Below, one piece after another: positions 17,956-52,236 of a stretch of DNA of 64,000 nucleotides; position 1 is the first letter of the stretch; every line of letters begins with the position of its first letter. This DNA comes from Bacteroidales bacterium (GTDB lineage: Bacteria > Bacteroidota > Bacteroidia > Bacteroidales > UBA7960): the NCBI GenBank assembly GCA_003560165.1, contig PWJC01000018.1, positions 1,987-65,986 on the forward strand, in the 5' to 3' direction. The notes beneath the pieces were generated by a model. It had not been told where the DNA came from. It made no database searches and saw nothing but the letters and a program-made list of their open reading frames with translations. The position numbers were made by a program, and so were the translations under genes.

Positions 17956-20361
17956 ATGATTTATTTACAGCATCATTTCCTTCTGCTGCTTTGTGCGCTG
18001 GCCTGGTTGATGCCGGTCAGTGCAAAGGGCCTCTCCGGGGGACAGCAGATGGAAAACCTTGAGATCATTCAACGCCTGGAAGGTTTTTCAAGAAACTTCC
18101 CCCAGCAGAAAGTCTATCTGCATACCGACAAAGACAGCTACCATGCCGGAGAAACCATCTGGATGAAAGCCTATGTGGTGAAGGGAAGCACGCATATGCC
18201 CGATACACTCAGCAGGAACCTTTATGTAGAAATGACCGATCAGGAAGGTAAGCATATCAGCAGCCTGTTGCTCGAAACCGGGGGCGGTACTTCCCATGCC
18301 GATATCCAGCTTCCCGATTCACTACCCGAAGGCAATTATTTCCTTCGGGCCTACACCAATTGGATGCGCAATTTTGACGAGGATCTGTATTTTTCAAAAA
18401 ACATCTTCGTGCACAATACCCTCGAACCGGATTTTATTTCGCGCAGTGACCTCCGGATGAACCGCCGGTTTAACCGGGAACTTTCGGGGCACCGTCAGCA
18501 GATGCAATTCGGCTTTTTCCCCGAGAGTGGCAATATGGTGTACGGACTGGAGAGCCGGGTTGCCTTCAAGGCAAGCAATCGGCTCGGGCAGGGTGAGCCG
18601 GCCAGCGGCAGGGTAGTCGACAACCTGGGTCGCGAAGTGCTGTATTTTGAGTCCCGCCACAACGGCCTGGGCGTTTTTTCCCTTATCCCCCGCGAGGGCG
18701 AACATTATTTTGCAGAAGTGGAATTTGAAAACGGAGCCCGGGAAACTTACCCCCTGCCCAAACCCCTGCCCCATGGTTTTGCCATGCAGGTCACAAGTGA
18801 AAACGAGGACATTTTGGTGGAGGTGAAGGCAAACTTCGATCCGGCCCGTTTTGGCATGCCCGACCAGGTATTTGTCCTTGCCCAGACCCGTGGGCAGGTA
18901 GTTGCTGCCGGTAGCGGGATGCTGGAAAACGGCAGCTTCAGCTTCCGCATCGACGCAAATGAGCTTCCGCCCGGAATTTGTCAGATCACCCTGTTCGACG
19001 GCAACGCATTTCCGGTTGCCGAGCGCCTGGTTTTTTCTGACCCGCAAAGGGTTCCCGAAGTGGGAATAGATGCCTATGTCTCAGAAAACGAAGGGGACAA
19101 TGTGCTTTCTCTTGATGTGTTTTTCGACGATCAGCTGCAGAAAACCCCTGCCGGATCCTATTCCATGTCGGTGGTTGAATGGCCGGTGCCAGAAAAAGAG
19201 ATTCCGCTCAACATCGCTTCCTATCTCTTGCTTGCCAGTGATATTGGCAAAAGCCTGGAAGATCCCTCCTATTACCTTCAGGGCCCGGACCCTGAAAGGA
19301 AGCAGGCTCTCGATCTGCTCATGATGACCCACGGCTGGAGGCGTTTCAGTTGGGAAAAGCTGTTGGCCGGCAGCTATCCGGAAATCACTTACGGAATTCC
19401 CGATGGGTTGTCTGTCGGCGGGAAGGTCCGTGCCCTGGCTTCGGCCGGGAAAGCGGATAATGTTCATGTGGAAATGACCATTGCAGACCGGGAGGCAGAC
19501 AGATACGCCACCCGCACCGATGAGGACGGAAACTTTTTGTTTACCGGTCTTCATTATTACGGTCACTTTAATGTGTTGCTGAACACCCCCTATAACCAGA
19601 ACGGAAGGAATTTGTGGATTGATCTGCATGCCCGCCAATTCAAAGACATTCCCTATCCGTTGAATATGCATACCCGTCCGAACAGCGTACTTTCGCGGGG
19701 ACAGGATTGGGTTCGGGTGAGATCACCGCGAATGCGACTGCGCCCGGCCTCCAGGGCCAGGCCGCAATTGGGAGAGCCGTATTTCGGGCGCCCCGACCAG
19801 GTCATCTACCAGCACGACATTCAGGGCCACTACACCAATATGATCGACCTGTTGCGCGGACGTGTGACAGGCCTTACCATCGAAGGTTCGAGGCTGACAT
19901 TTCGCGGGCAGAGCTACCCTTTCACCGATACCGAACCCTTGTATGTGGTTGATGGGGTCATGGTACATAAATCGACTTTTATGTCGGTGAATCCTGGCGA
20001 TTTGCAGCGGATTGAGATCATGAGGGGCTCCAGTGCCGCTATTTTCGGAAGCCGGGGAGGTGGCGGTGTGCTGATCGCCTATACCAAGAGAGGAGAGGAA
20101 ACAAGCCGCCGCATCTTTGAATTTACCCTTAAGGGTTACGAATACCCCAGGGAATTTTTCCAGACCGTGACAGACATTCCCGGCTACTTACAGGCCGGCA
20201 TTCCCAGAACCCTTTATTGGGAACCTGAGCTCAGTCCGGGAGAGGGCGGCATGACCAGCGTGTACATTCCTGCCCCAAATTTTGGCAATCAGGTAGTAGT
20301 TGTCATTGAGGGCCTCACCGGCAAGGGCGATCCCCTGTTTGTCAGGGCCCGTTTTGACTAG
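17956..20361 (+). CDS. Secreted MG2/alpha-2-macroglobulin-like repeat protein with C-terminal TonB-plug-like domain (paralog 1 of 3)
   Basis: 801 aa with a signal peptide (LLLLCALAWLMPVSA). Motifs include QQKVYLHTDKDSYHAGETIWMKAYVV, LPDSLPEGNY and LMMTHGWRRFSWE. The C-terminal plug-like stretch reads PLYVVDGVMV...NPGDLQRIEIMRGSSAAIFGSRGGGGVLIAYTKRG. No beta-barrel follows. Confidence 0.7.
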   Translation: MIYLQHHFLLLLCALAWLMPVSAKGLSGGQQMENLEIIQRLEGFSRNFPQQKVYLHTDKDSYHAGETIWMKAYVVKGSTHMPDTLSRNLYVEMTDQEGKHISSLLLETGGGTSHADIQLPDSLPEGNYFLRAYTNWMRNFDEDLYFSKNIFVHNTLEPDFISRSDLRMNRRFNRELSGHRQQMQFGFFPESGNMVYGLESRVAFKASNRLGQGEPASGRVVDNLGREVLYFESRHNGLGVFSLIPREGEHYFAEVEFENGARETYPLPKPLPHGFAMQVTSENEDILVEVKANFDPARFGMPDQVFVLAQTRGQVVAAGSGMLENGSFSFRIDANELPPGICQITLFDGNAFPVAERLVFSDPQRVPEVGIDAYVSENEGDNVLSLDVFFDDQLQKTPAGSYSMSVVEWPVPEKEIPLNIASYLLLASDIGKSLEDPSYYLQGPDPERKQALDLLMMTHGWRRFSWEKLLAGSYPEITYGIPDGLSVGGKVRALASAGKADNVHVEMTIADREADRYATRTDEDGNFLFTGLHYYGHFNVLLNTPYNQNGRNLWIDLHARQFKDIPYPLNMHTRPNSVLSRGQDWVRVRSPRMRLRPASRARPQLGEPYFGRPDQVIYQHDIQGHYTNMIDLLRGRVTGLTIEGSRLTFRGQSYPFTDTEPLYVVDGVMVHKSTFMSVNPGDLQRIEIMRGSSAAIFGSRGGGGVLIAYTKRGEETSRRIFEFTLKGYEYPREFFQTVTDIPGYLQAGIPRTLYWEPELSPGEGGMTSVYIPAPNFGNQVVVVIEGLTGKGDPLFVRARFD

Positions 20362-20494
20362 CAAAAAGCAACCGGCGAACTTGTCAGCAGCCTGCCTGAC
20401 TTTGCCTTCCGGGCATCAAAAATATGAAAGGATTGCATGCGTTTGGCATGATTATGGATGCCGTTTTCTTGATGAGCGGGAATCCAAAATCACC

Positions 20495-20502
20495 TATATT
20501 TG
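20495..20502 (+). promoter_or_regulatory. Bacteroidota-type -7 promoter box (TATATTTG)
   Basis: Exact TAnnTTTG match 63 nt upstream of the ATG at 20565. Confidence 0.4.
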
Positions 20503-20564
20503 TGCGTTCCTTACTCCGGGGGTATGCTGCTGCATGCCAAATACTCACCAATCGACACACTACC

Positions 20565-22925
20565 ATGAAACATCTTTTTAAGTTAATGATCATCGCAGTT
20601 TTCCTTGTTCCGGCTGTTTGGCAACATCCGGTCTTTTCGCAGGTTGACTCCGGGGCACAGATCCTGGGAAGCCTTAATCGTGTGCCTGCCGAAATGCCGC
20701 AGCAAAAGCTGTTTCTCCATACCGATAAAGACGAATACCTTGCCGGCGAAACCCTCTGGTTCAAGGCCTATCTGGTGAATGCCTTCTCTCACCAGCCCGA
20801 TCTGCTAAGCACCAACCTGCAGGTCCATCTTCTGAATGCCGACGGAGACCTGGCTGGATTTGCCCTGGTGAAGCTGACCGATGGCTATGGCCATGGTGAT
20901 TTTCAGCTCCCCGACTCCCTGGCGGATGGGAATTATCATATTCTGGCCCATACCGACATGATGGAGGCCTGGGGCAGTGACGAGGTTTTTAAAAAATATT
21001 TTTATGTTCACAATCCCGAAGAGGAAAACTTTATCAGGCGAAGGGGCATCAGATCTAACCGAAGGCTTAACCGAAGCCTTGAAAACCTGGAAGAAAATGT
21101 CCAGTTTGCTGTGTTTCCCGAGGGAGGGAATATGGCCGCCGGACTGGAGAACCGGGTGGCATTCAAGGCCGCCGATGGCCTTGGCCGGGGAATGGATGCC
21201 AGTGGCCGGCTCAGGACAGGGGATGGTACCGAGATCCTGACCTTTACCACCATCCACGATGGGATGGGCGAGTTTGCCTTTGTACCCGAGGCAGGAAAAG
21301 AATACACAGTTCAGGTTGAATTTGCCGACGGTTCAGGCATTCAGAAGGTTCTGCCTGCGGCCCTGGAGGAAGGCTATGTATTGAATGTCCTGCCACGCGA
21401 CGGCAAACTCGAGGTGTCGGTAAGCGCCAATTTTGACTCCAGGCAGTACAACATACCCCCCGACATCTTTATTATTGCCCAGGTCAGGGGACGTGCCTAT
21501 TTTTACGAGCTCGGCATGCTGAGACAGGGACGGTTCAACACCACCATTCCGGCGGATATGCTGCCCACCGGGGTTGCGCAGATCACTGTTTTTGATGCCA
21601 ACAACACTCCCCTTGCCGAACGTCTGGTATTTGTCAATCATCACGACATCGGCGAGGCTTCCATACAAACCTCCACTTCTTCCCTTGGAGGGCAGTCGGC
21701 CATCGTCATGGACCTGACTTTTGACGAACACGAATTCAAGGACAGCAAAACCGGTTATTCGCTGGCCGTTTTGGCCAGCCCTGAGGGTTCGCCCGGCTAT
21801 GGCGAAAACATTGCCACTTCATTTTATCTGACCAGCGAGTTGGGTCATCTGGTGAATGACCCCTGGTATTATTTCCAGGACAATGACGAAGCCCGCCTGG
21901 CGGCCGATCTGCTGATGATGACACATGGCTGGAGAAGGTTCAGTTGGGAGAATATCCTTGCTGGCGACTTTGGCGATGTGGAGGCCAGAAGGGAAGAAAG
22001 GTTGACGATCTCGGGGAAGGTGACCCTGAGCAGGTATGATGATTCGCCCGGCGAACAAACTGTTGAGCTGGGCTTGCTCGATGGGCAGTCGGTGGAGATC
22101 TACAGGTCTACCACCCGGCATACCGGAGAATTTTCTTTTTCCGGTTTGGAGTTTGACGAATTGACCCGGGTGCGCATCACCGTGCCCGCCTCCACCAGGG
22201 AGCGGCGCATGGAAGTTGAGCTTGACCGCCGCGAATACAGGAAACGCCCCCACGTACCGGGCTTTTACAGCCAAAAGCACGAGATATTGCGCAGAGGCCG
22301 CGCCTGGCGAAGGGTTCCCGTGCCTGAAACCTTGCTTCCCGACCCCACCCGCCAAAAGCATACGCGCATTTCGGCTCTGGGTGCCGCCCCCGATTTCGTG
22401 CTCTATATGGACGATGTGAGGGGTGAACCCACCGACATGGCCAGCCTGATGTCGGGCAGGGTGAGGATCAGCCGTGGCCCGGCCAGCATCAACTTGCCCA
22501 CCATACCCCTTTTCCTTATAGACGGGAGTATCGTCAAGCAACCGGTCTTTTATGCATTAAATCCGGTCGACCTGGAGAAGATTGAAGTGTACAGCGGAGC
22601 CTCCACGGCCATTTTTGGTGCAAGGGGTGCAAACGGTGCCATCCATGCCGTAACCAGGACAGGCCTTAATCGCGACGAAACCATGTTCAACGTGACCGGA
22701 TACCATATACCCAGGAAGTTCTTTGTCAACCATATCCATTATTCCGAATATGCCGCACTCGGCCTCAGCAAAACCTTATTGTGGGAAGAGATCCTGGTGC
22801 CCAACAACAACGGAGAAGCCAGATACATGTTCCCCGGCATCGATTCGTTCGATCACGTAAGGGTAGTTATCCAGGGTGTGGACAACAATGGGCACATCAT
22901 CTATACCGAACAGAAACTGCGATAA
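20565..22925 (+). CDS. Secreted MG2-like / C-terminal plug-like protein (paralog 2 of 3)
   Basis: The start is at MKHLFKLMIIAVFLVPAVWQ (signal peptide), downstream of the promoter box. It shares QQKLFLHTDKDEYLAGETLWFKAYLV, LPDSLADGNY, LMMTHGWRRFSWE and PLFLIDGSIV...NPVDLEKIEVYSGASTAIFGARGANGAIHAVTR. Confidence 0.7.
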   Translation: MKHLFKLMIIAVFLVPAVWQHPVFSQVDSGAQILGSLNRVPAEMPQQKLFLHTDKDEYLAGETLWFKAYLVNAFSHQPDLLSTNLQVHLLNADGDLAGFALVKLTDGYGHGDFQLPDSLADGNYHILAHTDMMEAWGSDEVFKKYFYVHNPEEENFIRRRGIRSNRRLNRSLENLEENVQFAVFPEGGNMAAGLENRVAFKAADGLGRGMDASGRLRTGDGTEILTFTTIHDGMGEFAFVPEAGKEYTVQVEFADGSGIQKVLPAALEEGYVLNVLPRDGKLEVSVSANFDSRQYNIPPDIFIIAQVRGRAYFYELGMLRQGRFNTTIPADMLPTGVAQITVFDANNTPLAERLVFVNHHDIGEASIQTSTSSLGGQSAIVMDLTFDEHEFKDSKTGYSLAVLASPEGSPGYGENIATSFYLTSELGHLVNDPWYYFQDNDEARLAADLLMMTHGWRRFSWENILAGDFGDVEARREERLTISGKVTLSRYDDSPGEQTVELGLLDGQSVEIYRSTTRHTGEFSFSGLEFDELTRVRITVPASTRERRMEVELDRREYRKRPHVPGFYSQKHEILRRGRAWRRVPVPETLLPDPTRQKHTRISALGAAPDFVLYMDDVRGEPTDMASLMSGRVRISRGPASINLPTIPLFLIDGSIVKQPVFYALNPVDLEKIEVYSGASTAIFGARGANGAIHAVTRTGLNRDETMFNVTGYHIPRKFFVNHIHYSEYAALGLSKTLLWEEILVPNNNGEARYMFPGIDSFDHVRVVIQGVDNNGHIIYTEQKLR

Positions 22926-23137: not shown

Positions 23138-25543
23138 ATGTACAATCGACAAAAAGCATTGTTTCATTATTTTTTTGCAGTGATATTGGGTGTTTTGCCG
23201 GGAATCAACCTGTCGGCTTCCCTGAAGGCCGATGGGGTGGAAAAACCCCTGGAGGTACTGGAAGCTTTCAGGGAGAAGCTTCCCCAGCAAAAAGTTTTCC
23301 TGCATACAGACAAGGAGAACTACCTGGCCGGAGAGGACATCTGGATCAAGGCATATGTAGTGGACGCTGCCACACACCTGCCCGACACCCTCAGTTCGAA
23401 CCTCCAGGTCGAACTGCTGAATTACAGGGGCGAGTTGGTGGAGCGGATGCTGCTGCGGCTGGATAATGGCCGGGCCCATGGTGAATTCACCCTGGCCGAC
23501 TCCCTGTCGGACGGCAATTATGTGTTGCGTGCACACACCCATTGGATGAAGAATTTCGGAGAGGACTTTTTCTTTGACAGGCATCTTTATGTGAACAATC
23601 CGGAAGAAGCAAACTTTATCCGTTTCGGCGACCGGCGCCAGAACAGACGGTTTAACCGCGAATTGGACGCAAGGGGCGGGCAAATGCAGTTTGCTGTCTT
23701 TCCTGAAGGTGGCCAGCTGGCCAGCGGCCTCGAAAACCGGGTAGCTTTCAAGGCCACCAATATGCTGGGGGCCGGCCTGGACGTCAGAGGAAGGCTTACA
23801 GACAGCCAGGGCAATGAGATCACTGCCTTTGAGAGCCTTCATCTGGGGATGGGTGTGTTTTCTTTCACTCCCCTTGCCGGGGAAAGCTATTTTGCCGAAG
23901 TGGTCTTTCCCGGAGGTGAACACAGCCGGATTCCCCTGCCCGAGGCAAAAACCGGGGCTTACCTGCTGACTGTCGCACAGGATGAGGAGTTCATTCACAT
24001 CGGAGTGAAATCCAACTTCGACCCGGTAGAACACGGATTGCCGCAAACAGTGCACCTGCTTGCCCAGGTCAGAGGAGAGCCCGTCTTTGCCGGGAGCCCC
24101 GTCCTCGAAAATAACCGGCTGTCGGTTGATCTGCCCCTTGGTGAACTGCCTGCCGGCATCGTGCACATCACGCTGTTTGGCCCCAACGCCACACCACTGG
24201 CCGAGCGACTGGTATTTGCCAATCAGGAAACTGTTTCGGCGGTATCCGGGGCAGGTATCTCAGATACTGCTGAACGCGACGGTTCCGGGATGGTCACGGT
24301 GGCGTTCGACAAAAGCGGGGAAGAAGATACCGGCAGCTATTCCCTGGCGGTGGTGGAAGGGGGAGGGCCAGACAATCCACACGCCTCCAATATCCTCACA
24401 TGGTTTTACCTGGAAAACGATCTTGGGCAGGCACTGGAAGACCCGTGGTATTATTTTTCGGAAGATTTCACCGAAAGAAAAGAGGCCCTGGACGTGATGA
24501 TGATGACCCACGGATGGCGGAGGTTCGAATGGGAGTCTTTGCTGGATGGCGAATTCCCGGAGCCTGGCTATCCTGTAATGGACGGACTGTCCATCAGGGG
24601 GCAGGTGGTGCCGCTCGGATCGTCGTATATGCCGGGTCAGCTCACTGTCGAACTGGCTGTGATCAGGAACGAGGAGTATTCGCATTATTCGACCGAGACC
24701 AATTTTGATGGTGAGTTCGTTTTTGAAGGCCTTGATGTGGAAGGTTATTTTCTGGCCGAAATGACCACCAGGGGCGATCTGACCGACCGGAGGTTCCGCA
24801 TCGACATGATCGCCCGTAAATACGACCGCTTCGATTACGAGTACATCATGGATTTCCATACCCAGGCACATAGCGTACTCAGCCGGGGCAGCGATTGGGA
24901 AAGGGTCAGGAGGCCTCTGACGTTGTTATCGGATTACCCCGACGACATCGAAGAAAGAGACCGGTCCGGCACCATTGGTACACCGGATTTTGTCCTGTAC
25001 CTCGACGACGTCCGGATGGAGTACCCCGACCTGGCAAGCCTGCTTCCCGGTCGCATACCGGGATTGCGGACAGACCAGGGCAGTTTTTACTTCCATGGCC
25101 CTTCGAGCATCAATCTGGATACCGAGCCCCTTTTCCTGGTGGAGGGGGTCATTGTAACCCGGGCTTCCTTTTTCAGCCTGAACCCCAAAGATGTGGAGAA
25201 GATAGAAGCCTACCGCGGACCCAGTGCGGCCATTTTCGGACGAAGTGGGGCAAACGGTGCCCTGAATGCGGTCATCAGGACCGGGCGGGGCGAAACCTAT
25301 TATGAATTCCAGCTTCTGGGCTACAATAGCCCCCGCACCTTTTTCCAGTCGGAACTGCCGGCTTACCGCTATGAGCAAAGCGGGGTAGCCCGCACCATTT
25401 TCTGGGAACCCATGATAAAACCGGGTGAAAATGGCAAGCGGCAGTTGGAGTTTGAGCTGCCCGCCGAAGATGTGCTCTACTACATCCTGTTGCAGGGAAT
25501 GGATGCAGAAGGAGGGTTTACGTACCAGTTGCGCATTCTCTGA
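23138..25543 (+). CDS. Secreted MG2-like / C-terminal plug-like protein (paralog 3 of 3)
   Basis: 801 aa. It shares QQKVFLHTDKENYLAGEDIWIKAYVV, LADSLSDGNY, MMMTHGWRRFEWE and PLFLVEGVIV...NPKDVEKIEAYRGPSAAIFGRSGANGALNAVIR. Confidence 0.7.
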   Translation: MYNRQKALFHYFFAVILGVLPGINLSASLKADGVEKPLEVLEAFREKLPQQKVFLHTDKENYLAGEDIWIKAYVVDAATHLPDTLSSNLQVELLNYRGELVERMLLRLDNGRAHGEFTLADSLSDGNYVLRAHTHWMKNFGEDFFFDRHLYVNNPEEANFIRFGDRRQNRRFNRELDARGGQMQFAVFPEGGQLASGLENRVAFKATNMLGAGLDVRGRLTDSQGNEITAFESLHLGMGVFSFTPLAGESYFAEVVFPGGEHSRIPLPEAKTGAYLLTVAQDEEFIHIGVKSNFDPVEHGLPQTVHLLAQVRGEPVFAGSPVLENNRLSVDLPLGELPAGIVHITLFGPNATPLAERLVFANQETVSAVSGAGISDTAERDGSGMVTVAFDKSGEEDTGSYSLAVVEGGGPDNPHASNILTWFYLENDLGQALEDPWYYFSEDFTERKEALDVMMMTHGWRRFEWESLLDGEFPEPGYPVMDGLSIRGQVVPLGSSYMPGQLTVELAVIRNEEYSHYSTETNFDGEFVFEGLDVEGYFLAEMTTRGDLTDRRFRIDMIARKYDRFDYEYIMDFHTQAHSVLSRGSDWERVRRPLTLLSDYPDDIEERDRSGTIGTPDFVLYLDDVRMEYPDLASLLPGRIPGLRTDQGSFYFHGPSSINLDTEPLFLVEGVIVTRASFFSLNPKDVEKIEAYRGPSAAIFGRSGANGALNAVIRTGRGETYYEFQLLGYNSPRTFFQSELPAYRYEQSGVARTIFWEPMIKPGENGKRQLEFELPAEDVLYYILLQGMDAEGGFTYQLRIL

Positions 25544-41638: not shown

Positions 41639-45067
<3,429 letters not shown>

Positions 45068-45557
45068 TGGTTACGTATGGATTTGCAAGGCTGACCGAAA
45101 CGATGTGATGGGCAGTGTGTTCCAATTGCTGAATTTCGAAGAACAGCGTAAACCCACATTCAGCAGAGATCATGTGCAGTTCGCTTTGGTAAGTAACCCA
45201 GAGGGTGTCTGTTTCCCTGCCGAATGAAAGCACAAAAGCGGAAGTAGTTGCGGAAGGATTCAGGGGAAGCTCAACCAGCGAAACATCCTCTGCCATGTCG
45301 TAAATGGGTTGATCCTGCCTGCCCAGCCCGGCAATGCTCAGGGTGTCGATGGTGGCCGCGACCGGTTCTTCCTGGCCGGCCAGGAAGAACCTCATGCGCA
45401 ACTCATTGGCGGTGACTTCTCCGCATACCTCGTCGTCATGGCATGCCCACATGCCCATGCCAATCAATAGCATGAACAGCCACCTCAGATGCCGGATCAG
45501 GAGTTCAGGCCGTATTGGTCGTTGCATGAAAGCAAAATTAAGAAAAAAGCATCACTG

Positions 45558-46643
45558 TCAGTAAAACCCCAGATCGGCCGGAATGATGCCTGCACGCTGA
45601 CTCGATATGAGTAAGCCCTGGCTGCTGAAGCGCATGATGATCCCGGGCTGAACGTAGTCGATGGCATCGGTCACATAGATCTCGCCGCTGTCCGGGTCGG
45701 CCGAAAGACCGTAAAAACCCCTCCCTTTCGATGCAACAAACAACCTGGCCCCTGATTGGGGGTCGGCCGTTGACATGGAAAAAATATCCCTTCCTAAAAA
45801 GTAAAGGGTTTCTCCACAGGGGCTGATCTGCAGACGGGAGATCGGGTTCCCCACCTTCCCTAAGGGGTAGAATCCCAGTATTTCGAGATTCCGGGGTTCG
45901 ATCTGGTACAGGCCGGGCTGGCCTTTCAACATGGGCTCCCCCCCCGAAAGCACCCAAAGATAGCCGGCCGCATCGACCACCATCGATTGGGGGCCGGGTG
46001 GCAGGTGGAGGCTGTCGGTCAGGCGATCTGTTTCAGTATCTATGGCGTACAGATAGCCCGACCCCGTGCCTGCAACCAGGACCCGCTCGCCCAGCCTCAG
46101 CATGGCCTCCGTCCATCCCCTCATCGGTATCTGCCCTGTGATCTCCATGCCCTGCAGGTCTGCAATGCTCAACCCATTGCCATAGAGGTCGCTTACATAG
46201 GCCCTGGAAGCATTCACCGGCAAAAGGTAACGCGGCGACACCAGCCCGGTGATGGTGCCCTGGTGCTGGAAAGTGTGGGGATTGATGATCTCAATGGTTC
46301 CCGAATTGTTGATCACCAGATAGGCCAACCCGTTGTGGATGGTCATGGATTGGAACACATCGCCCAGAGGTTTGTTGTTGACCCGGCTATACAGATTATG
46401 GTAGATGCTGTCCGTTGTCTTGTCGTAATAGCTCAGGCTGGCATTTCCCCAGCCGAAATTTCCTTCGTTCACCACAAAGGCTCCCTGACCTTCCCGGATC
46501 CCAGGCAGTTCAGGGCCATTGTGTGCCGGGTCTTTTTCGCAGGAGAGCGAAAGAAGGCATAGAAGGAGAAGGCCGGAAGCCATGGCGATGAGCCCGGGGA
46601 GGGGTTGTTTTACCTGGCTGTTGCATGGAAGGGATGAGGTCAT
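45558..46643 (-). CDS. YncE-like/DUF5074-like beta-propeller surface lipoprotein
   Basis: Lipobox LLSLSC. Motifs GAFVVNEGNFGWGNASLSYYD and C-terminal IYVTDAIDYVQPG are typical of the DUF5074 'cell surface protein' group found beside TonB receptors. Confidence 0.6.
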   Translation of the reverse strand: MTSSLPCNSQVKQPLPGLIAMASGLLLLCLLSLSCEKDPAHNGPELPGIREGQGAFVVNEGNFGWGNASLSYYDKTTDSIYHNLYSRVNNKPLGDVFQSMTIHNGLAYLVINNSGTIEIINPHTFQHQGTITGLVSPRYLLPVNASRAYVSDLYGNGLSIADLQGMEITGQIPMRGWTEAMLRLGERVLVAGTGSGYLYAIDTETDRLTDSLHLPPGPQSMVVDAAGYLWVLSGGEPMLKGQPGLYQIEPRNLEILGFYPLGKVGNPISRLQISPCGETLYFLGRDIFSMSTADPQSGARLFVASKGRGFYGLSADPDSGEIYVTDAIDYVQPGIIMRFSSQGLLISSQRAGIIPADLGFY

Positions 46644-47671
46644 TGGTTCAGGTAGATGAATTTTTTTGAATAATGCTGTTTCCCGTCGCTCACATGCAGC
46701 AGGTAGAATCCGTCGGCAATCCGGAGTCGGGGGAAGCTGACCGTATGCATCCCGGCCCTGGGGATGGGGATGGTTTCCCGGTAGATCAACTGCCCGGCCG
46801 GATGAAACAAGCTCATGACCACACTTCCCTCTTTCGGGCTTTGTATCATGATGCGGCTGCCTTGACTGGCCGGGCTGGGCCTGATGCCTGCCCTCAGACC
46901 GGACTCCGGGGCCGCGGCCTGGTGAATGACCCCGATGGCGTCCAGATCGAAGCCGCCGGTGGGGAAAGGGGTTGGCCAGGGGTCGTTGATGATGTTGCCA
47001 TGGGTGTCGAAGGAAGCAAAGAGGGTGTCGATACTGCCAACAACGTCGACCACCCGCACATGGGTGATGCGGTTCACATCCAGGCCCGGGCTGCCCTTGA
47101 GGGTGTCCAGGTCGAAGGGGACCCCATAAAATACGCGGTATTTTCCGGCCAGGTTGTGAATCTTTTCAGCTTCCAGGGTCCCAAAGGCAGAAATCTGGGT
47201 GTCGGTCCGGGTTAACGAGGTGTTCGGGAACCTGACAAAATGCCTCCCGTCAGAGCTTACCTCCACAAAAGCCAATTCAAGAAAATAGTCATCAAAAGCA
47301 TTTTCAAAAACGGCAAAGTCCCAGCCAGGGCCATTGGCGATGGGCGGATCAAAGCCAAGTATTGCATAACCACCGTCCCCAAGGCTGAGTGTACCTCCTT
47401 CACCTGCCTTCCCGATTGCATCATTGCAGTCGCCTGCCGAAGCATACCCCAGCGAAGGCCTCGAAATGTCGATATAAGCTCGCCGGACCGCACATTCTGT
47501 TGCCCATCCCACAAAAACAGCAGAATCCTTGTGGATGGCTGTTGATCCGGGCCGTCCGGCCGGTGAAGAGAATTGCGCATAAAGCGTGTTGGAAAGCTGC
47601 AGGAACAGGCACGGAACCAGAATGGACCAGATCCATATCATCCGTTTGAGGTCAAGCGTTGTTTTTACCAT
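46640..47671 (-). CDS. Secreted protein of unknown N-terminal domain with T9SS type A C-terminal sorting domain
   Basis: It has a signal peptide. A roughly 250-aa domain (GDGGYAILGFDPPIANGPGWDFAVFENAFDDYFLELAFVEVSSDG) is followed by a CTD-like tail (...GFYLLHVSDGKQHYSKKFIYLNQ). There is a 4-nt overlap with the downstream gene. Confidence 0.55.
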   Translation of the reverse strand: MVKTTLDLKRMIWIWSILVPCLFLQLSNTLYAQFSSPAGRPGSTAIHKDSAVFVGWATECAVRRAYIDISRPSLGYASAGDCNDAIGKAGEGGTLSLGDGGYAILGFDPPIANGPGWDFAVFENAFDDYFLELAFVEVSSDGRHFVRFPNTSLTRTDTQISAFGTLEAEKIHNLAGKYRVFYGVPFDLDTLKGSPGLDVNRITHVRVVDVVGSIDTLFASFDTHGNIINDPWPTPFPTGGFDLDAIGVIHQAAAPESGLRAGIRPSPASQGSRIMIQSPKEGSVVMSLFHPAGQLIYRETIPIPRAGMHTVSFPRLRIADGFYLLHVSDGKQHYSKKFIYLNQ

Positions 47672-47695
47672 AATACGGGCTGTCCCGGGGCAGTG

Positions 47696-48733
47696 TTATT
47701 GCTTAATAATCCTTTTGGTATGCCGGTATTGCTCTCCCTCCAGGCTTAGCAGGTAGATGCCCGAAGGCAGACTGCTTAGGTCAATAGGTTGTTCCTGAGG
47801 CAGATGGCCCGACTGCATGAAACGCCCCGCACTATCTGTAACGCGGTAAGTGATACCCCCCTTACCAGCTGTTCCATCAATGGATACGCTGACGCCGTTT
47901 AAGAATGGGTTCGGATAGATGACCGCATCCTGCACCTGACTGATCCATGGGGATTGGGTGGTGTTTCCATCATCCATGGTGGTGATCTGTCCGATGCAGA
48001 TCAGGGCAGGTGTGTTCATCCCCCATTGGCCCACATCGGATGAACTAAGCCTGAGTTCCAGGCTGTCTGTTGCCCCGATCCCGTCAAGGGGGATGCGCTC
48101 CCAGGTATCAACGATGTAGTTTTTACGACTGTCTTCAAAGCGATAGTCTGCCAGGTAGAATTCCACCTTTTGGTCTTCCAGGGCCTCTCCATGGCGCCAG
48201 CCGACAAGGGTCAGCAAAAACCAATCGGGATCATTTCCGTCTTCACCTCCGAATTTTTTTGAGAACTCATCTCCGTTGAGCATAGCCAGGGCTGCGTAAG
48301 TGGTATTGCTTACCACCATGTCCTTCAGGGAACCTCCCTTTGCCGGACCCTTAGGAATAAGGAACAGGCTGTTGGCAAAGGTAAGCGGGTCGGACACATA
48401 GGCAACGGCATAATTCGTGTTCCCTTCGTAACCACCTCCGGTAACAACACTGTATTGATTGCCAATTCCGGGGGTTTCGTTATCTGTGGTGCTGGACAGT
48501 GAGAATCCACTCCAGCTGTAAAGTTCATCGGTCCACCAGGTGAAATAATTTGGAAAAAACAGATATCCGCTAACAAATCCTCCGGAACCATCCGAGCCAT
48601 TCCAGTAAGTTTCCGGCTCCAGTTCCATTTCGTCGAAATTGGCAACTGTCTGGGCAGTGAGTTGGCCGGTTGTTATGCTTATTGACCATAGCATAAGGGA
48701 CAACGCAATAATATGCGTGGTAAAGTTCGTCAT
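47696..48733 (-). CDS. DUF4465-like domain protein with T9SS type A C-terminal sorting domain
   Basis: YWNGSDGSGGFVSGYLFFPNYF...WSGFSLSSTTDNETPGIGNQYSVVTGGGYEGNTNYAVAYV matches my memory of DUF4465. The C-terminal VIYPNPF...GIYLLSLEGEQYRHTKRIIKQ is a T9SS CTD. There is a 4-nt overlap (ATGA) with the receptor gene. Confidence 0.6.
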   Translation of the reverse strand: MTNFTTHIIALSLMLWSISITTGQLTAQTVANFDEMELEPETYWNGSDGSGGFVSGYLFFPNYFTWWTDELYSWSGFSLSSTTDNETPGIGNQYSVVTGGGYEGNTNYAVAYVSDPLTFANSLFLIPKGPAKGGSLKDMVVSNTTYAALAMLNGDEFSKKFGGEDGNDPDWFLLTLVGWRHGEALEDQKVEFYLADYRFEDSRKNYIVDTWERIPLDGIGATDSLELRLSSSDVGQWGMNTPALICIGQITTMDDGNTTQSPWISQVQDAVIYPNPFLNGVSVSIDGTAGKGGITYRVTDSAGRFMQSGHLPQEQPIDLSSLPSGIYLLSLEGEQYRHTKRIIKQ

Positions 48734-50661
48734 GGGCTTTGGTGTTGTTTGGGTGAATTCAGGGTGAATGAATAACCGGCCCCTGCCCTGAAATGCCTTA
48801 AAGGCATGGGTCGGCCAGACATGACCTGATAGGCCTGGTTGAATACGTTATGGGCCGATACGAAAGCATGGAAACTGTATGAGGCCGGTTTCCAAAAACA
48901 AGACACATCTGTATGATGGAAAGAACCCAGCCACTGGCTGTTGTCGGTGGTTGTGTATCGCCTGCCAGTATATGACTGATTGACGGAGATGCCAAGATGC
49001 CTGAATTGCACATTCAGATTAATGCCCATTTGGTTTTCAGGCACATAGATAAGTTGCTTTCCTCTGGAGGCATCGTTGGGACTTTTGGCCACCGTATTGA
49101 CAGCCTTTGTGTGGTCCCAAAGCATCTGCCAGTTCAGCACTGCCTGCCCTTTTTCGAGTTGCCCCTGCAATCGTGCCTCTGTGCCATAACTCCTTACCTG
49201 CATGATGTTTTCCGGGCTCCAGTGCATACTTCCCTGAACGGGGACCCACATGATCCAGTCATCGATCTTCCTGTGAAACCCCGTGAGGGAAAACCGGACA
49301 TGGTTCAATGTGTTAACAGAAGAATTGCGCAGGAAGTTAATCCCAATATCCTGGCTCCAGCCTTTTTCGGGCTTTAAGTCAGGATTGCCTCCCGGTACCC
49401 AGTATCTGTCGTTCAGGCTCGGTATGCGGTAATTTTTTCCGGCATTGATCTTCAGATACATCCCGGATACCATCTTTAAAGACATCCCAACTGATGGTGC
49501 AAACGGTAAGGCCTGCCCGGAGGCGAACTCCTGTCTTGCGTTGACATGAAACTGTGTTGCCCCGGGAATCATATCCCATTTCAGGGCCATAAAAACAGCG
49601 TAGGTGAATTCTTCCCTTCGGCCGCTGTATTCATCCGACCATGCCCTGACGCGTTGGAAATGAATGCCGGGGTTGCCAGTGAATCCGGGTGCCGGGCTGA
49701 ACATGTATTCTGCCTCCTGCGAAAGGGTCTCGGCCGTTGAGTTGCTTTCCGGGGTCAGACTGTCTGCATAGGATACCTCTTCGTTAAAATAGGCTCCTCT
49801 CCAGTTCATCACACCATGTTTGCCTGCGTATGACCAGTGTCCGGTAACCCTCAAGGAGGCGTCTTCCTGATACCCCCCCTGATGGGTTTGCATCATGGCT
49901 GGCGGGATGTGACGTGCATTGTCCTGCCACCACCACCTGAGGTCGATGTGATGTTTCTGGTGGGGCTGATAATGAATTTCATGGAGTATGCCCTGTTGCC
50001 TTGTCCCGGCATGCTTTTGTTTCATAACCGGTTGATGAGCGAAGCCACTATGAATAAATTGATAGCGGTTCTCTGCTTCCAGGTTGAATACCCTCAGCCT
50101 GGTACTCAGGCGCCCAATCCCCGCTCCAACGGCTAGTTGCTGCATGAACTCCCCGGTATTTGACCCGCTTAGCCCAAAGCTGGTATGGACTCCCTGCCCG
50201 CTTACTCTTTCATTCTGAAAATGAATTACCCCGCCCATACTCCCGCTGCCCCACAGCGCACTACCCCCTCCGTACTGAACGCTGACACGGTCAGTAAAGA
50301 AAACGGGTATCAGGCTCAGGTCGGTTTGACCATGCATGGGATTTTGAATGTGGAAGCCATTCCATACCAGGGCTGTCTGAGCTGCTGTTCCACCTCGCAG
50401 TGATGTGGCAGAAAGGTTACCGGGGCCATAACTTTTGATAAAAATACCGGCATGCCTGCTTAGCAGGTGATCGACCGACAAATGACGGTGGGCGTTCAGG
50501 GCCTGGCTTCCGATCTTTATGAGCTGATGCCCGGCATCAAATACCTGATGCCGGGAAGTGCTTACCTGTACCTCATCGAGTGTGATAAGGGTATCCGGCT
50601 CATCGATGGTGCCAGCCAGTGCCTGCAGGGGCAGCATACACAGCAGTAGAATGCGAAACAT
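48730..50661 (-). CDS. btuB: TonB-dependent receptor, BtuB-like (cobalamin riboswitch-controlled)
   Basis: It has a signal peptide, a plug (LDEVQVSTSR ... FIKSYGPGNLSATSLRGGTAAQTALVWNGFHIQNP) and a roughly 640-aa barrel ending in an aromatic-rich strand. It is directly preceded by a cobalamin riboswitch. The start is at ATG 50661. Confidence 0.85.
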   Translation of the reverse strand: MFRILLLCMLPLQALAGTIDEPDTLITLDEVQVSTSRHQVFDAGHQLIKIGSQALNAHRHLSVDHLLSRHAGIFIKSYGPGNLSATSLRGGTAAQTALVWNGFHIQNPMHGQTDLSLIPVFFTDRVSVQYGGGSALWGSGSMGGVIHFQNERVSGQGVHTSFGLSGSNTGEFMQQLAVGAGIGRLSTRLRVFNLEAENRYQFIHSGFAHQPVMKQKHAGTRQQGILHEIHYQPHQKHHIDLRWWWQDNARHIPPAMMQTHQGGYQEDASLRVTGHWSYAGKHGVMNWRGAYFNEEVSYADSLTPESNSTAETLSQEAEYMFSPAPGFTGNPGIHFQRVRAWSDEYSGRREEFTYAVFMALKWDMIPGATQFHVNARQEFASGQALPFAPSVGMSLKMVSGMYLKINAGKNYRIPSLNDRYWVPGGNPDLKPEKGWSQDIGINFLRNSSVNTLNHVRFSLTGFHRKIDDWIMWVPVQGSMHWSPENIMQVRSYGTEARLQGQLEKGQAVLNWQMLWDHTKAVNTVAKSPNDASRGKQLIYVPENQMGINLNVQFRHLGISVNQSYTGRRYTTTDNSQWLGSFHHTDVSCFWKPASYSFHAFVSAHNVFNQAYQVMSGRPMPLRHFRAGAGYSFTLNSPKQHQSP

Positions 50662-50721
50662 GCGATTGGTTTCCGGTGAATTTTTGCCTTTTTCCCGAAA
50701 GCTGCAAATCAATAATAAACG

Positions 50722-50912
50722 CACAGGCAGGTCTTCTGACTTACTCCATGTTTACCGCCTTCCCACCTCTTTGGGCAGTGGCATTGCAGAGGTAAACATT
50801 AATCAAGGAGCTTACAGCAGCGGGAACTGTCCGGGATTCTCACCCGATTCCCTTTTCATCCGGTTAATCCGGTAGGATGCCGGAACCTGTACCCGGCAAA
50901 GGTAGGCAAAAA
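50722..50912 (-). promoter_or_regulatory. Cobalamin (AdoCbl/B12) riboswitch
   Basis: The minus-strand RNA reads ...AAAAGGGAAUCGGGUGAGAAUCCCGGACAGUUCCCGCUGCUGUAAGC...AUGCCACUGCCC...GGUGGGAAGGCGG...AGUCAGAAGACCUGCC. The conserved GGGAA / GGUGAGAAUCC / GCCACUG elements and the B12 box (50726-50741) are all present. Confidence 0.85.
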
Positions 50913-50934
50913 ACCATAAAAGCTCGGAAAAAGA

Positions 50935-52236
50935 TCAAAAATAGGTGGAAATGCCCATGCTAAGCAGTTGGTCAACCGGACGGCAATCGCCTGTCATGAT
51001 GCTTCCCTTGCTGTTTTTGGCCATTGCAGCGCAGCCCCCTCCGCACAGCAGCTGGAGATGACATTCTTTGCATTCGTCAATGGAGCATACGTCCCTTGTT
51101 TGCCATTTGGAAATTTCTTCCTGATTCAGTATCACTTCGGGGTAAAATTTCCCCAACTCTTCTCCATTTTTCCCAACAGTGGCTGTGCAACTGTAAATGG
51201 TTCCCAGATAATCGAACGCCCATTCGCTCTTGCATCCGGGGCAGGCATCGAATAAAGGGGCAGGGAGTTCACCATGATCTTTCAGGAAACGGGCTGCGCT
51301 AAAAGCCGGACGGTGAAATTCGAGTATTTCCGGATGTGACCGGATGAGTCCGTAAAGCCCGGCATACAAAGAAAGCCTTGAAAATAGCTTTGCTGTGCCG
51401 GCGTGACAATGATGAAGTTCATAATTGCGCCCAAGCTGGGATTTAAAATGGGGGGATTTTGTCCAGCCCTTGTCAATGGCAAACCTGGATAGTTCAGGTA
51501 GCGAACAAATGTTTTCCTTATCGACCACAACCCTCAGATTCACGGTGATCGCCCTGGAAAGGCATTCGTCAATGTTGGCAACGATCTTCCCGAAACTTGG
51601 TTTGCCTCCATTGCAGGGCCTGCGTTTGTTGTGGATGTGTTCCGGACCGTCGAGCGTAAACTGAATTTCACGGATGTTAACCTTTTCAAGAGCGGGGAGG
51701 TATTTGTCCAGGTAGTATCCATTTGTAACAGCCGCCAGATCCATCTGTTGGGTTTCACACAGACCGATAAAGCGGGTCAGTGCAGAAAAATAGGAACGAC
51801 CGGTTAAAAAGGGCTCACCCCCAAAAAGGGTTATGTATTTTTTCCGGTGGGGCAGATGGGTACGAATGAATGCAAAAAAACCGTCGGTCAATTTTGCCGA
51901 GAGTGCTTCCGGGGAATTCTGATAAGGTAGTTGATAGCAGTAAGAGCAGGAAAAATTACAGTTGTAGGTGGGCGCAAAAAATACCTGAACCTCCTCCTGG
52001 CTTCGCTGTTCCAGGTAATCGATATAGGCAAGGCGATAACGTTGTTTTTCCCGGAGGGGGTCTGTGATATATCCTTTTTCTACAAAGTCTTCGATTGCTT
52101 CGCTTTCCTGGTGGCTCTGAAGCAGTGCAAGCTCAGGTCCGGATACAATATCAGCCTGGCCCGATAACAGGTTGGCCAATACGTACCTGGCTGAGCCCGG
52201 GATTTCAGCAACGATGTTGTACCTGGAAGGACCCAT
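50935..52236 (-). CDS. Radical SAM/SPASM domain protein (peptide-maturase-like)
   Basis: The CNFSCSYC (CxxxCxxC) cluster is at residues 93-100, after an ~85-aa N-terminal extension. The C-terminal SPASM signature reads CPGCKSEWAFDYLGTIYSC ... CKECHLQLLCGGGC ... GDC. Confidence 0.85.
   Translation of the reverse strand: MGPSRYNIVAEIPGSARYVLANLLSGQADIVSGPELALLQSHQESEAIEDFVEKGYITDPLREKQRYRLAYIDYLEQRSQEEVQVFFAPTYNCNFSCSYCYQLPYQNSPEALSAKLTDGFFAFIRTHLPHRKKYITLFGGEPFLTGRSYFSALTRFIGLCETQQMDLAAVTNGYYLDKYLPALEKVNIREIQFTLDGPEHIHNKRRPCNGGKPSFGKIVANIDECLSRAITVNLRVVVDKENICSLPELSRFAIDKGWTKSPHFKSQLGRNYELHHCHAGTAKLFSRLSLYAGLYGLIRSHPEILEFHRPAFSAARFLKDHGELPAPLFDACPGCKSEWAFDYLGTIYSCTATVGKNGEELGKFYPEVILNQEEISKWQTRDVCSIDECKECHLQLLCGGGCAAMAKNSKGSIMTGDCRPVDQLLSMGISTYF
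50936..50943 (-). promoter_or_regulatory. Bacteroidota-type -7 promoter box (TATTTTTG on minus strand) for the riboswitch/btuB operon
   Basis: The + strand reads CAAAAATA. It overlaps the stop codon of the radical SAM gene and lies about 25 nt upstream of the riboswitch core. Confidence 0.4.

Follow-up and report, generated by a model that had tools for sequence, protein, structure and literature searches.

The stretch of DNA analysed here, 64,000 nucleotides of contig PWJC01000018.1 from a Bacteroidales bacterium (assembly GCA_003560165.1; hereafter the window, numbered from its first letter), carries on its minus strand a tightly packed operon of four genes headed by a cobalamin riboswitch. 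From the riboswitch onward, these genes encode a BtuB-like receptor, a DUF4465 protein, a protein here called X, and a BtuG-like propeller. The evidence supports a riboswitch-led corrinoid uptake operon of the btuB/btuG type in which the products of the two middle genes end in a type A C-terminal domain (CTD) of the type IX secretion system (T9SS), with the propeller as the only lipoprotein. The features are as follows, with a slash marking the cleavage site of a signal peptide.

50709..50905, minus strand: cobalamin riboswitch aptamer (RF00174), a covariance-model match, with its B12 box at 50726-50741
48730..50661, minus strand: btuB-like TonB-dependent receptor, 643 amino acids, signal peptide MFRILLLCMLPLQALA; Plug 55 bits, TonB barrel 104 bits
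47696..48733, minus strand: BtuJ-like DUF4465 protein with a T9SS type A CTD, 345 amino acids; DUF4465 at ~47987-48520, CTD at ~47699-47920
46640..47671, minus strand: protein X, 343 amino acids, signal peptide (cleavage ~YA/QF); N-domain at residues 33-255 (46907-47575), CTD at ~46643-46879
45558..46643, minus strand: btuG-like seven-bladed propeller lipoprotein (DUF5074 match), 361 amino acids, with a probable lipobox, LSLS/C35, followed by EKD

The riboswitch, which the original prediction had recognised from the letters alone, scores 106.4 bits with the Rfam covariance model RF00174, well above the gathering score of 31.5 (expectation value, E, of 1.2e-25), and the match spans the full model, positions 1-189. 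Its B12 box, AGUCAGAAGACCUGCC, runs from 50741 to 50726, where it had been placed before, and the receptor gene starts at an ATG at 50661 (MFRILLL...), ~64 nucleotides 3' of the box, in good agreement with the 65 nucleotides originally given; the 643-residue gene from this ATG is also called in public copies of the same contig. Both of the 4-nucleotide overlaps described earlier are present, one where the receptor gene ends and the DUF4465 gene begins (48730-48733) and the other where the X gene ends and btuG begins (46640-46643), and 24 nucleotides separate the DUF4465 gene from the X gene.

The import core is formed by the first and the last of these genes. The receptor, expected to be TonB-dependent, matches both the Plug and the TonB barrel domains, and its top three matches in the PDB are the BtuB chains of BtuB-BtuG complexes from Bacteroides thetaiotaomicron (8p97_A, 8p98_A and 8bmx_C), which align over its full length with E of ~1e-49 to 3e-48. 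The propeller, first described as DUF5074/YncE-like, scores 82.9 bits with the Pfam DUF5074 model (cutoff 27.2) and aligns over residues 43-356 with B. thetaiotaomicron BtuG structures (8p97_B, 8okv_B, 8bmx_D and others) at E ~4e-57, the best value being 3.6e-57 to 8p97_B. Homologous as they are to both chains of the solved complexes, the receptor and the propeller are thus assigned by homology to a BtuB-BtuG unit of the kind reported in PMC10404256. Moreover, when the propeller and the two CTD proteins are read by eye, a lipobox-like Cys signal (LSLS/C35-EKD) appears in the propeller only, as had been claimed.

The second gene encodes a DUF4465 domain (Pfam PF14717; 162.1 bits against a cutoff of 25), followed by a C-terminal tail that scores 37 bits with Por_Secre_tail and 48.5 bits with TIGR04183, and its signal peptide, as judged by eye, is of the Sec type, ends in ...TAQ and has no Cys. 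DUF4465 has been described as the BtuJ family, with an augmented jelly-roll fold, represented by BtuJ1 (BT_1491) and BtuJ2 (BT_1957), with PDB entries 9FCT/9I2L for BtuJ1/BtuJ2 (PMC13398666; the preprint PMC12751083; reviewed in PMC13616437), and eight divergent members have been demonstrated to bind B12 (PMC13398666). The original prediction had equated DUF4465 with BtuH, an assignment that has to be replaced by BtuJ in view of PMC13398666 and PMC12751083. The nearest solved relative of the window protein is the B12-bound D5EK51 (PDB 9hmu; E 3.6e-18).

In the DUF4465 family, the Tyr of the HI-loop motif (M)NTPxY is the hallmark residue, a central B12 contact that is 97% conserved (PMC13398666). 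In the window protein this loop reads MNTPAL, with Leu244 in place of the Tyr, which counts against its assignment as an ordinary BtuJ-type binder. A loss or change of specificity is one explanation, such that the protein would recognise another corrinoid or tetrapyrrole, or would be a mere partner of X; it draws on the presence of NTPAL also in P0002 and of NTPAM in P0003, the two closest homologues, the next nine sequences having NTPAY. In the DUF4465 proteins of related cassettes, the same position is occupied by Tyr in 17, Phe in 9 and Val in 1, from which it follows that the clade of the cassette type tolerates loss of the hydroxyl group. With Phe so frequent among sister CTD-type proteins, with the rest of the domain strongly conserved (162 bits), and with the gene still under riboswitch control in an intact cassette, a change of specificity seems quite improbable. 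The tyrosine of the NTxY motif, Y146, is also kept, and a comparison of motifs by eye with D5EK51 and BtuJ2 suggests that it is the B12-binding tyrosine of the DE helix.

Protein X had been listed as a protein of unknown domain, and its N-domain indeed has no Pfam match, but model and motif now make it a probable component of the BtuH type. The only recognised domain in X is the CTD (TIGR04183, 28.0 bits against a cutoff of 23), and its signal peptide is ordinary, ending in ...YAQ and, by eye, without a usable Cys. At least 7985 homologous proteins were found at E <= 0.001, typically with ~50% identity and annotated only as T9SS-tailed; an alignment of 36 members reveals the conserved motifs SLGDGG, DFAVFEN, VEVSSDG, NLAGKY and GGFDLDAVG. 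The idea that X is a diverged DUF4465 domain was rejected, as hhalign of the two family profiles aligns the CTDs only. Likewise rejected was the idea that the X domain resides within the ~540-residue DUF4465 homologues, which consist of two tandem DUF4465 domains and a CTD. Natural fusions in the order DUF4465-X-CTD do exist (P0162, P0218 and P0234).

The N-domain of X (residues 33-255) was modelled with AlphaFold2 (predicted local distance difference test score, pLDDT, 86; predicted template modelling score, pTM, 0.88). In Foldseek comparison with the PDB, the two top TMq values of this model belong to 7biz_A (0.47, E 8.5e-4) and 8blw_B (0.43), the former deposited as 'B12 binding lipoprotein from B. 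thetaiotaomicron' (BtuH2) and the latter a BtuG1/BtuGH fusion containing a BtuH domain; these are the only two structures of BtuH domains that were found. When the whole protein was modelled instead, the matches in the PDB were low-scoring multi-domain glycosidases only. BtuH proteins are those with a B12-binding C-terminal domain, namely BT_1956, BT_1488 and BT_1490.

The same relationship emerges, though weakly, from sequence comparison. The top PDB match of X in phmmer is again 7biz_A, with SLGD-GGYAILGFDPPIAN-GPGWDFAVFENAFDD facing SLGSFGGYIIVGFDHSIPNSGNQYDFCVQGNAFDG, and X residues 94-132 align with BtuH2 residues 367-406 at ~51-57% identity in phmmer and hhalign. Between the X family and BtuH2, hhalign gives a P value of ~2e-5 and a probability of 67-80% over 36-45 columns. 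In addition, the hidden Markov model of the X family scores BtuH2 at ~15 bits. When run against 3781 open reading frames (ORFs), that is, all of at least 80 amino acids from every retrieved locus, it returned 90 family matches, and among the matches listed, all 42 further ones were BtuH2-type ORFs. Full BtuH2 and BtuJ2 genes were recovered from human-gut metagenome contigs as comparison sequences; a BtuH profile built from the recovered loci was too uniform to improve hhalign. BtuH2 numbering was verified at N399, F401, E406, Q333, F334, Y475, H476, Y510, W511, D522, W577, L578, S582 and E584.

The aligned motif includes residues with known roles in BtuH2, where Asn399 contacts the phosphate and takes part in the metal site, Phe401 contacts the lower ligand and Glu406 belongs to the metal site (PMC8941943, PMC13616437). 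Asn399 corresponds to N124 of X and Glu406 to E132, both invariant in the 36 members of the X family, and Phe401 corresponds to the nearly invariant F126. A relaxed alignment of X and BtuH2 is collinear throughout, pairing PAGQ with PAPGQ(333)F, WAT with WAT, and W232 with Trp577. Model and motif together make it probable that X contains a compact domain distantly related to the one with which BtuH binds B12, and by extension X would bind corrinoids.

Several observations weigh against this kinship. The TM score of X to BtuH2 is just 0.47; the confident alignment is limited to ~36-45 columns around one motif, with a similarity that is marginally significant; and profile searches of PDB sequences with the X family did not recover 7biz. 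The X domain, which is shorter, has nothing that corresponds to the BtuH2 segment bearing the corrin contacts Tyr475, His476, Tyr510 and Trp511, although this gap lies in a low-confidence part of the relaxed alignment, and X has an insertion of its own of ~30 residues. Discoidin and CBM32 domains also match the X model (TM 0.28-0.39), and one of them has the best E-value. It could be supposed that X is no corrinoid binder, being either a lectin- or discoidin-like surface module that docks to a glycan or a protein, or an unrelated passenger of the operon. The best Foldseek E-value indeed goes to an F5/8 type C domain (3nng), followed by many CBM32, CBM6 and discoidin domains, and BtuK2 and BtuL of B. 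thetaiotaomicron show that proteins encoded in btu operons may lack B12 binding (PMC13616437); about one fifth of the well-flanked X loci, moreover, have no B12 link. On the other hand, the top TM scores go to BtuH structures and not to lectins, the conserved motif holds exactly the nucleotide-loop and metal-site residues of BtuH2, some proteins are natural fusions of X with DUF4465, and the association of X with B12 boxes is strong and strand-specific, as detailed below. The supposition of a non-binder is thus unlikely, and a BtuH-type domain remains the preferred reading of X.

As a separate observation, residues 89-156 of X, which hold its most conserved motif, weakly match NCBIfam NF033170, 'LIC_13355 family lipoprotein' (E 0.0056), a hint of distant relatives of the X/BtuH-like domain.

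The two tails were also followed up at the level of families. Beyond the scores of the window proteins, which both pass the TIGR04183 cutoff, the X-family CTD matches solved T9SS CTDs (8glk_D, E 8e-6; 8glj_D; and mirolase, 8qb1), and the X-family and DUF4465-family CTDs align with an hhalign probability of 97.6%. On these profile matches, both tails can be assigned as genuine T9SS type A sorting domains, as the original prediction had held, and they would be used by a T9SS for export. Both Pfam domains, DUF4465 and CTD, occur together in 108 of the top 120 homologues of the DUF4465 protein, many of which are of the tandem 2xDUF4465+CTD form.

For an assessment of conservation, a species scan was performed with one genome per species, which found X in at least 561 genomes, and gene order, anchors and B12 boxes were counted in the best 80 X loci of these. 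The division of anchors is consistent: among complete sequences, the proportion with a CTD is 74 of 75 for X and 35 of 36 for DUF4465. None of 40 BtuG proteins has a CTD, and the BtuG homologues of the 40 cassettes essentially all have a Cys lipobox. Swaps of anchor occur at the periphery, as in P0107, a lipoprotein without a CTD that is 58% identical to the window DUF4465 domain, and in L014, where the DUF4465 protein is a lipoprotein and X keeps its CTD. Our reading of this pattern is that the lid of BtuB, which must sit on the transporter, stays lipidated, that peripheral binders may take either surface route, and that T9SS-bearing lineages mostly use the CTD route for them. Gut Bacteroides, B. 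thetaiotaomicron among them, are not known to possess a T9SS, and this would account for the restriction of studies so far to lipoprotein versions.

The tails could in principle be relics or serve some other purpose, the two proteins being soluble periplasmic binders. Non-lipoprotein DUF4465 members have been described as having 'periplasmic targeting signals' (PMC13398666), a group that probably includes the CTD-bearing proteins, and the CTD score of X is modest at 28 bits. Against this stand the retention of CTDs in nearly all complete X and DUF4465 proteins over the 80 species loci, the match of the tails to solved, functional T9SS CTDs, and the cell-surface action of the B. thetaiotaomicron counterparts, so that a periplasmic location is very improbable.

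The fate of the proteins after T9SS export is a different matter. Type A CTD cargo may become covalently linked to the lipopolysaccharide of the surface or may be released, and which of the two happens varies with the organism and the protein. A release of the CTD proteins into the medium as soluble 'corrinophores', similar to haemophores or to BtuJ-loaded vesicles, is conceivable but on balance doubtful. It would accord with the fact that cargo of this type can be released as well as attached, with the action of B. thetaiotaomicron BtuJ at a distance on vesicles (PMC12751083), with the complete absence of CTDs from BtuG (0/40), which must sit on BtuB, so that the CTD proteins fit as a mobile layer, and with the commonness of tandem 2xDUF4465-CTD forms. 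Nevertheless, sequence cannot tell release from attachment, a diffusible high-affinity binder would be costly in open water, and the close lipoprotein versions of DUF4465 (P0107, L014) suggest that tethering to the surface is a conserved requirement.

The cassette is widespread in environmental Bacteroidota and is not peculiar to this genome. By their titles, the X-encoding genomes belong to Bacteroidales, Flavobacteriales, Chitinophagales, Saprospiraceae, Sphingobacteriales and Cytophagales, with a few metagenome-assembled genomes (MAGs) labelled Ignavibacteria or Chlorobiota. A BtuB-like receptor is found in 53 of the 80 X loci, BtuG in 45 and DUF4465 in 37, and a link to B12 (BtuB, BtuG, DUF4465 or an upstream B12 box) in 62; where at least 4.5 kb is available on both sides, 33 of 42 loci have such a link. 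The commonest complete order is that of the window, receptor-DUF4465-X-BtuG (21 loci), followed by X-receptor-BtuG (12) and DUF4465-X-receptor-BtuG (6), and X stands alone in 22. In 46-47 of the 80 loci a strict B12-box pattern precedes X on the strand of the gene itself, and in none does one lie on the opposite strand; two more Rfam cobalamin riboswitches were detected just upstream of X among 12 'X alone' loci that were checked. The four-gene order of the window, riboswitch included, also recurs in unrelated neighbourhoods, in L006/L007 (from a MAG labelled Sphingobacteriales) and in L008/L009. Hence, of the 'different export logic' proposed for this set at the outset, the CTDs stand, and the layout proves to be a widely recurring one rather than a trait of one genome. 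The refuting outcomes named in the original prediction did not occur, as far as computation can address them: the aptamer scores with the covariance model, both tails pass TIGR04183, and the accessory domains either fall within families that bind B12 or resemble them.

Two further observations concern these loci. In cassettes of the X-receptor-BtuG order, a further gene stands between the riboswitch and X, as in L043 (4193-5893, plus strand) and, at a similar position, in L018, L028, L033, L051, L056 and others; the 566-residue protein of L043 shows weak signals of a beta-propeller, has a middle region to which nothing could be assigned, ends in a clear T9SS CTD (43 bits), and may represent a third kind of CTD-sorted accessory protein. 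Moreover, X contigs L049, L058, L064 and L067 come from MAGs labelled Ignavibacteria, Chlorobiota, Bifidobacterium or Chloroflexota; the Ignavibacteria and Chlorobiota labels may reflect real spread in the wider group, and those of Bifidobacterium and Chloroflexota look like binning errors.

Taken as a whole, the operon is probably a riboswitch-repressed module for corrinoid capture at the outer membrane, of the BtuB-BtuG type of Bacteroides and adapted to a T9SS-bearing bacterium. When intracellular cobalamin is low, the riboswitch would be unliganded and the four co-transcribed genes would be expressed. The BtuB-like transporter and the BtuG-like surface lipoprotein, acting as its lid, would constitute the import core as in B. 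thetaiotaomicron, and the jelly-roll DUF4465 protein of the BtuJ type and the compact BtuH-type X would be exported by Sec and then, by virtue of their type A CTDs, by the T9SS. Fixed to the cell surface or released, these two proteins would bind extracellular corrinoids and pass them on to BtuG and BtuB.

This picture has to be set against a number of results that disagree with it. A terminator was sought between the aptamer and the ATG and none was found, and the fold of 50630-50760 is no better than those of shuffled sequences (z = -0.05), and no significant expression-platform structure was found; the mode of action of the riboswitch is accordingly put forward here as presumptive. The best NCBIfam match of the receptor is TonB-B12, and in the tested equivalogs TIGR01779 and NF007926 it stays under the BtuB cutoffs (95.5 bits against 599.7, and 61 bits against 836). 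The NCBIfam BtuB equivalog models are centred on proteobacterial BtuB, to which we attribute this large shortfall. In addition, the CTD of the window X lies under the Pfam threshold and passes TIGR04183 alone, and the ten large window ORFs that were scanned include no T9SS component.

B12 is a scarce and shared cofactor, which most Bacteroidota must scavenge. Current models of capture and relay rest on gut Bacteroides, in which every accessory binder is a lipoprotein. The cassette described here, found in at least several hundred species, has the same or related binding domains with another route of export, the BtuG lid still being lipidated. The transporter system is known; what may be new is a conserved, different delivery route and a large unannotated family that is possibly of the BtuH type. 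A full-text literature search gave no report joining T9SS to B12 capture, and T9SS is not mentioned in the papers that define BtuG, BtuH and BtuJ/DUF4465; both negatives come from an incomplete coverage of the literature, in which absence is not proof. Nor is the CTD-type DUF4465 architecture discussed in the DUF4465 papers examined. The proteins themselves are already in databases, as 'DUF4465 domain-containing protein' and 'T9SS type A sorting domain-containing protein'.

A wider hypothesis, which we advance tentatively and regard as the less probable outcome, is that environmental Bacteroidota, together with some genomes labelled Ignavibacteria or Chlorobiota, possess a T9SS-deployed, two-protein extracellular layer for scavenging corrinoids, in which a BtuJ-type jelly-roll and an unrecognised minimal BtuH-type domain, one with no Pfam family and thousands of members, feed a lipoprotein-capped BtuB-BtuG importer. 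If, in addition, the two proteins were released, they would rank as the first secreted protein 'corrinophores', and the T9SS would join the factors that decide competition for B12 in soils, sediments and waters. The lead offered by the cassette is thus a link between the T9SS and vitamin acquisition, with family X, of at least 7985 homologues, as a candidate new corrinoid binder; the natural fusions and anchor swaps could serve to separate transporter-bound from roaming components. Exchanges of a lipobox for a CTD are by themselves unsurprising in Bacteroidota, and the value of the present case lies in the consistent split, the scale of X and its testability.

The genes on either side of the operon were also considered.

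45012-45527, minus strand: DUF6452 lipoprotein (signal ...MWA/C-HDDE), 81 bits
44408-45067, minus strand: DUF6048 protein, 103 bits
50935-52236, minus strand: radical SAM/SPASM peptide-maturase-like gene, with a CefB-like best NCBIfam match of 141 bits, well below cutoff

The DUF6452 and DUF6048 genes overlap each other and come right after btuG, in the same orientation and before ligA. They also follow btuG in the nearer relatives L012 and L014 and are absent from the cassettes of L006-L009; possibly the operon acquired them within this lineage, and their membership of it is uncertain. The radical SAM/SPASM gene ends 30 nucleotides before the riboswitch; among the related cassettes, only those of the closest relatives, L010 and L012, have this gene upstream. 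None of the three was accepted as a member of the cassette, their conservation not extending beyond the nearest relatives. Elsewhere in the window, three tandem paralogues of ~800 amino acids are encoded on the plus strand (17956-20361, 20424-22925 and 23138-25543), each with an N-terminal MG2 domain (alpha-2-macroglobulin-like) and a C-terminal match to the TonB 'Plug'; no barrel domain was detected in them, which makes for an unusual architecture.

Among known systems, the cargo of the T9SS with type A sorting domains (TIGR04183/PF18962; 8glk, 8glj, 8qb1) provides the first comparison. The window proteins share with it the Sec signal, a C-terminal beta-sandwich of ~75 residues and motifs of the PxP, GxY and K-I-I-K types in their tails. 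They differ in kind, for the cargo in the literature searched comprises proteases, glycanases, adhesins and haem-related proteins, with no corrinoid binder reported.

With BtuJ1 and BtuJ2 (PF14717; 9FCT, 9I2L, 9HMU), the DUF4465 protein shares the domain itself, the MNTPA loop and the NTxY motif, but it has Leu at the position of the HI-loop Tyr and a CTD architecture in place of a lipoprotein signal. BtuH2 (7BIZ; BT_1956) is the best TM match of X and has in common with it the motif SLG-GGY-I-GFD-I-N-G-DF-V-NAFD...E, in which Asn399, Phe401 and Glu406 lie. The X domain is smaller, ~220 residues against ~270, with different loops; BtuH2 has an N-terminal PKD/Ig stalk that X lacks, and the lipid anchor of BtuH2 is replaced in X by a type I signal peptide and a CTD.

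A locus made up of lipoproteins only is available for comparison in L103 (978-5846, plus strand), a B. thetaiotaomicron-like contig from the human gut metagenome, which encodes btuJ2 (a lipoprotein with NTPAY), btuH2 (a PKD stalk and the B12 domain) and a 696-residue lipoprotein with Receptor L-domain repeats.

Finally, the cobamide loci of B. thetaiotaomicron combine BtuB-BtuG with the lipoproteins BtuH, BtuJ, BtuK and BtuL (PMC10404256, PMC8941943, PMC12751083, PMC13616437). The window cassette differs from them in being without btuFCD, btuK and btuL, in belonging to an uncultured environmental member of the Bacteroidota and not to a gut Bacteroides, and in giving its binders a Sec signal and a T9SS CTD instead of lipoprotein signals. 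The two have in common control by a cobalamin riboswitch, a BtuB transporter and a BtuG propeller lipoprotein that are homologous over their full length, and an operon that also encodes a DUF4465 (BtuJ-type) binder and a BtuH-like one.

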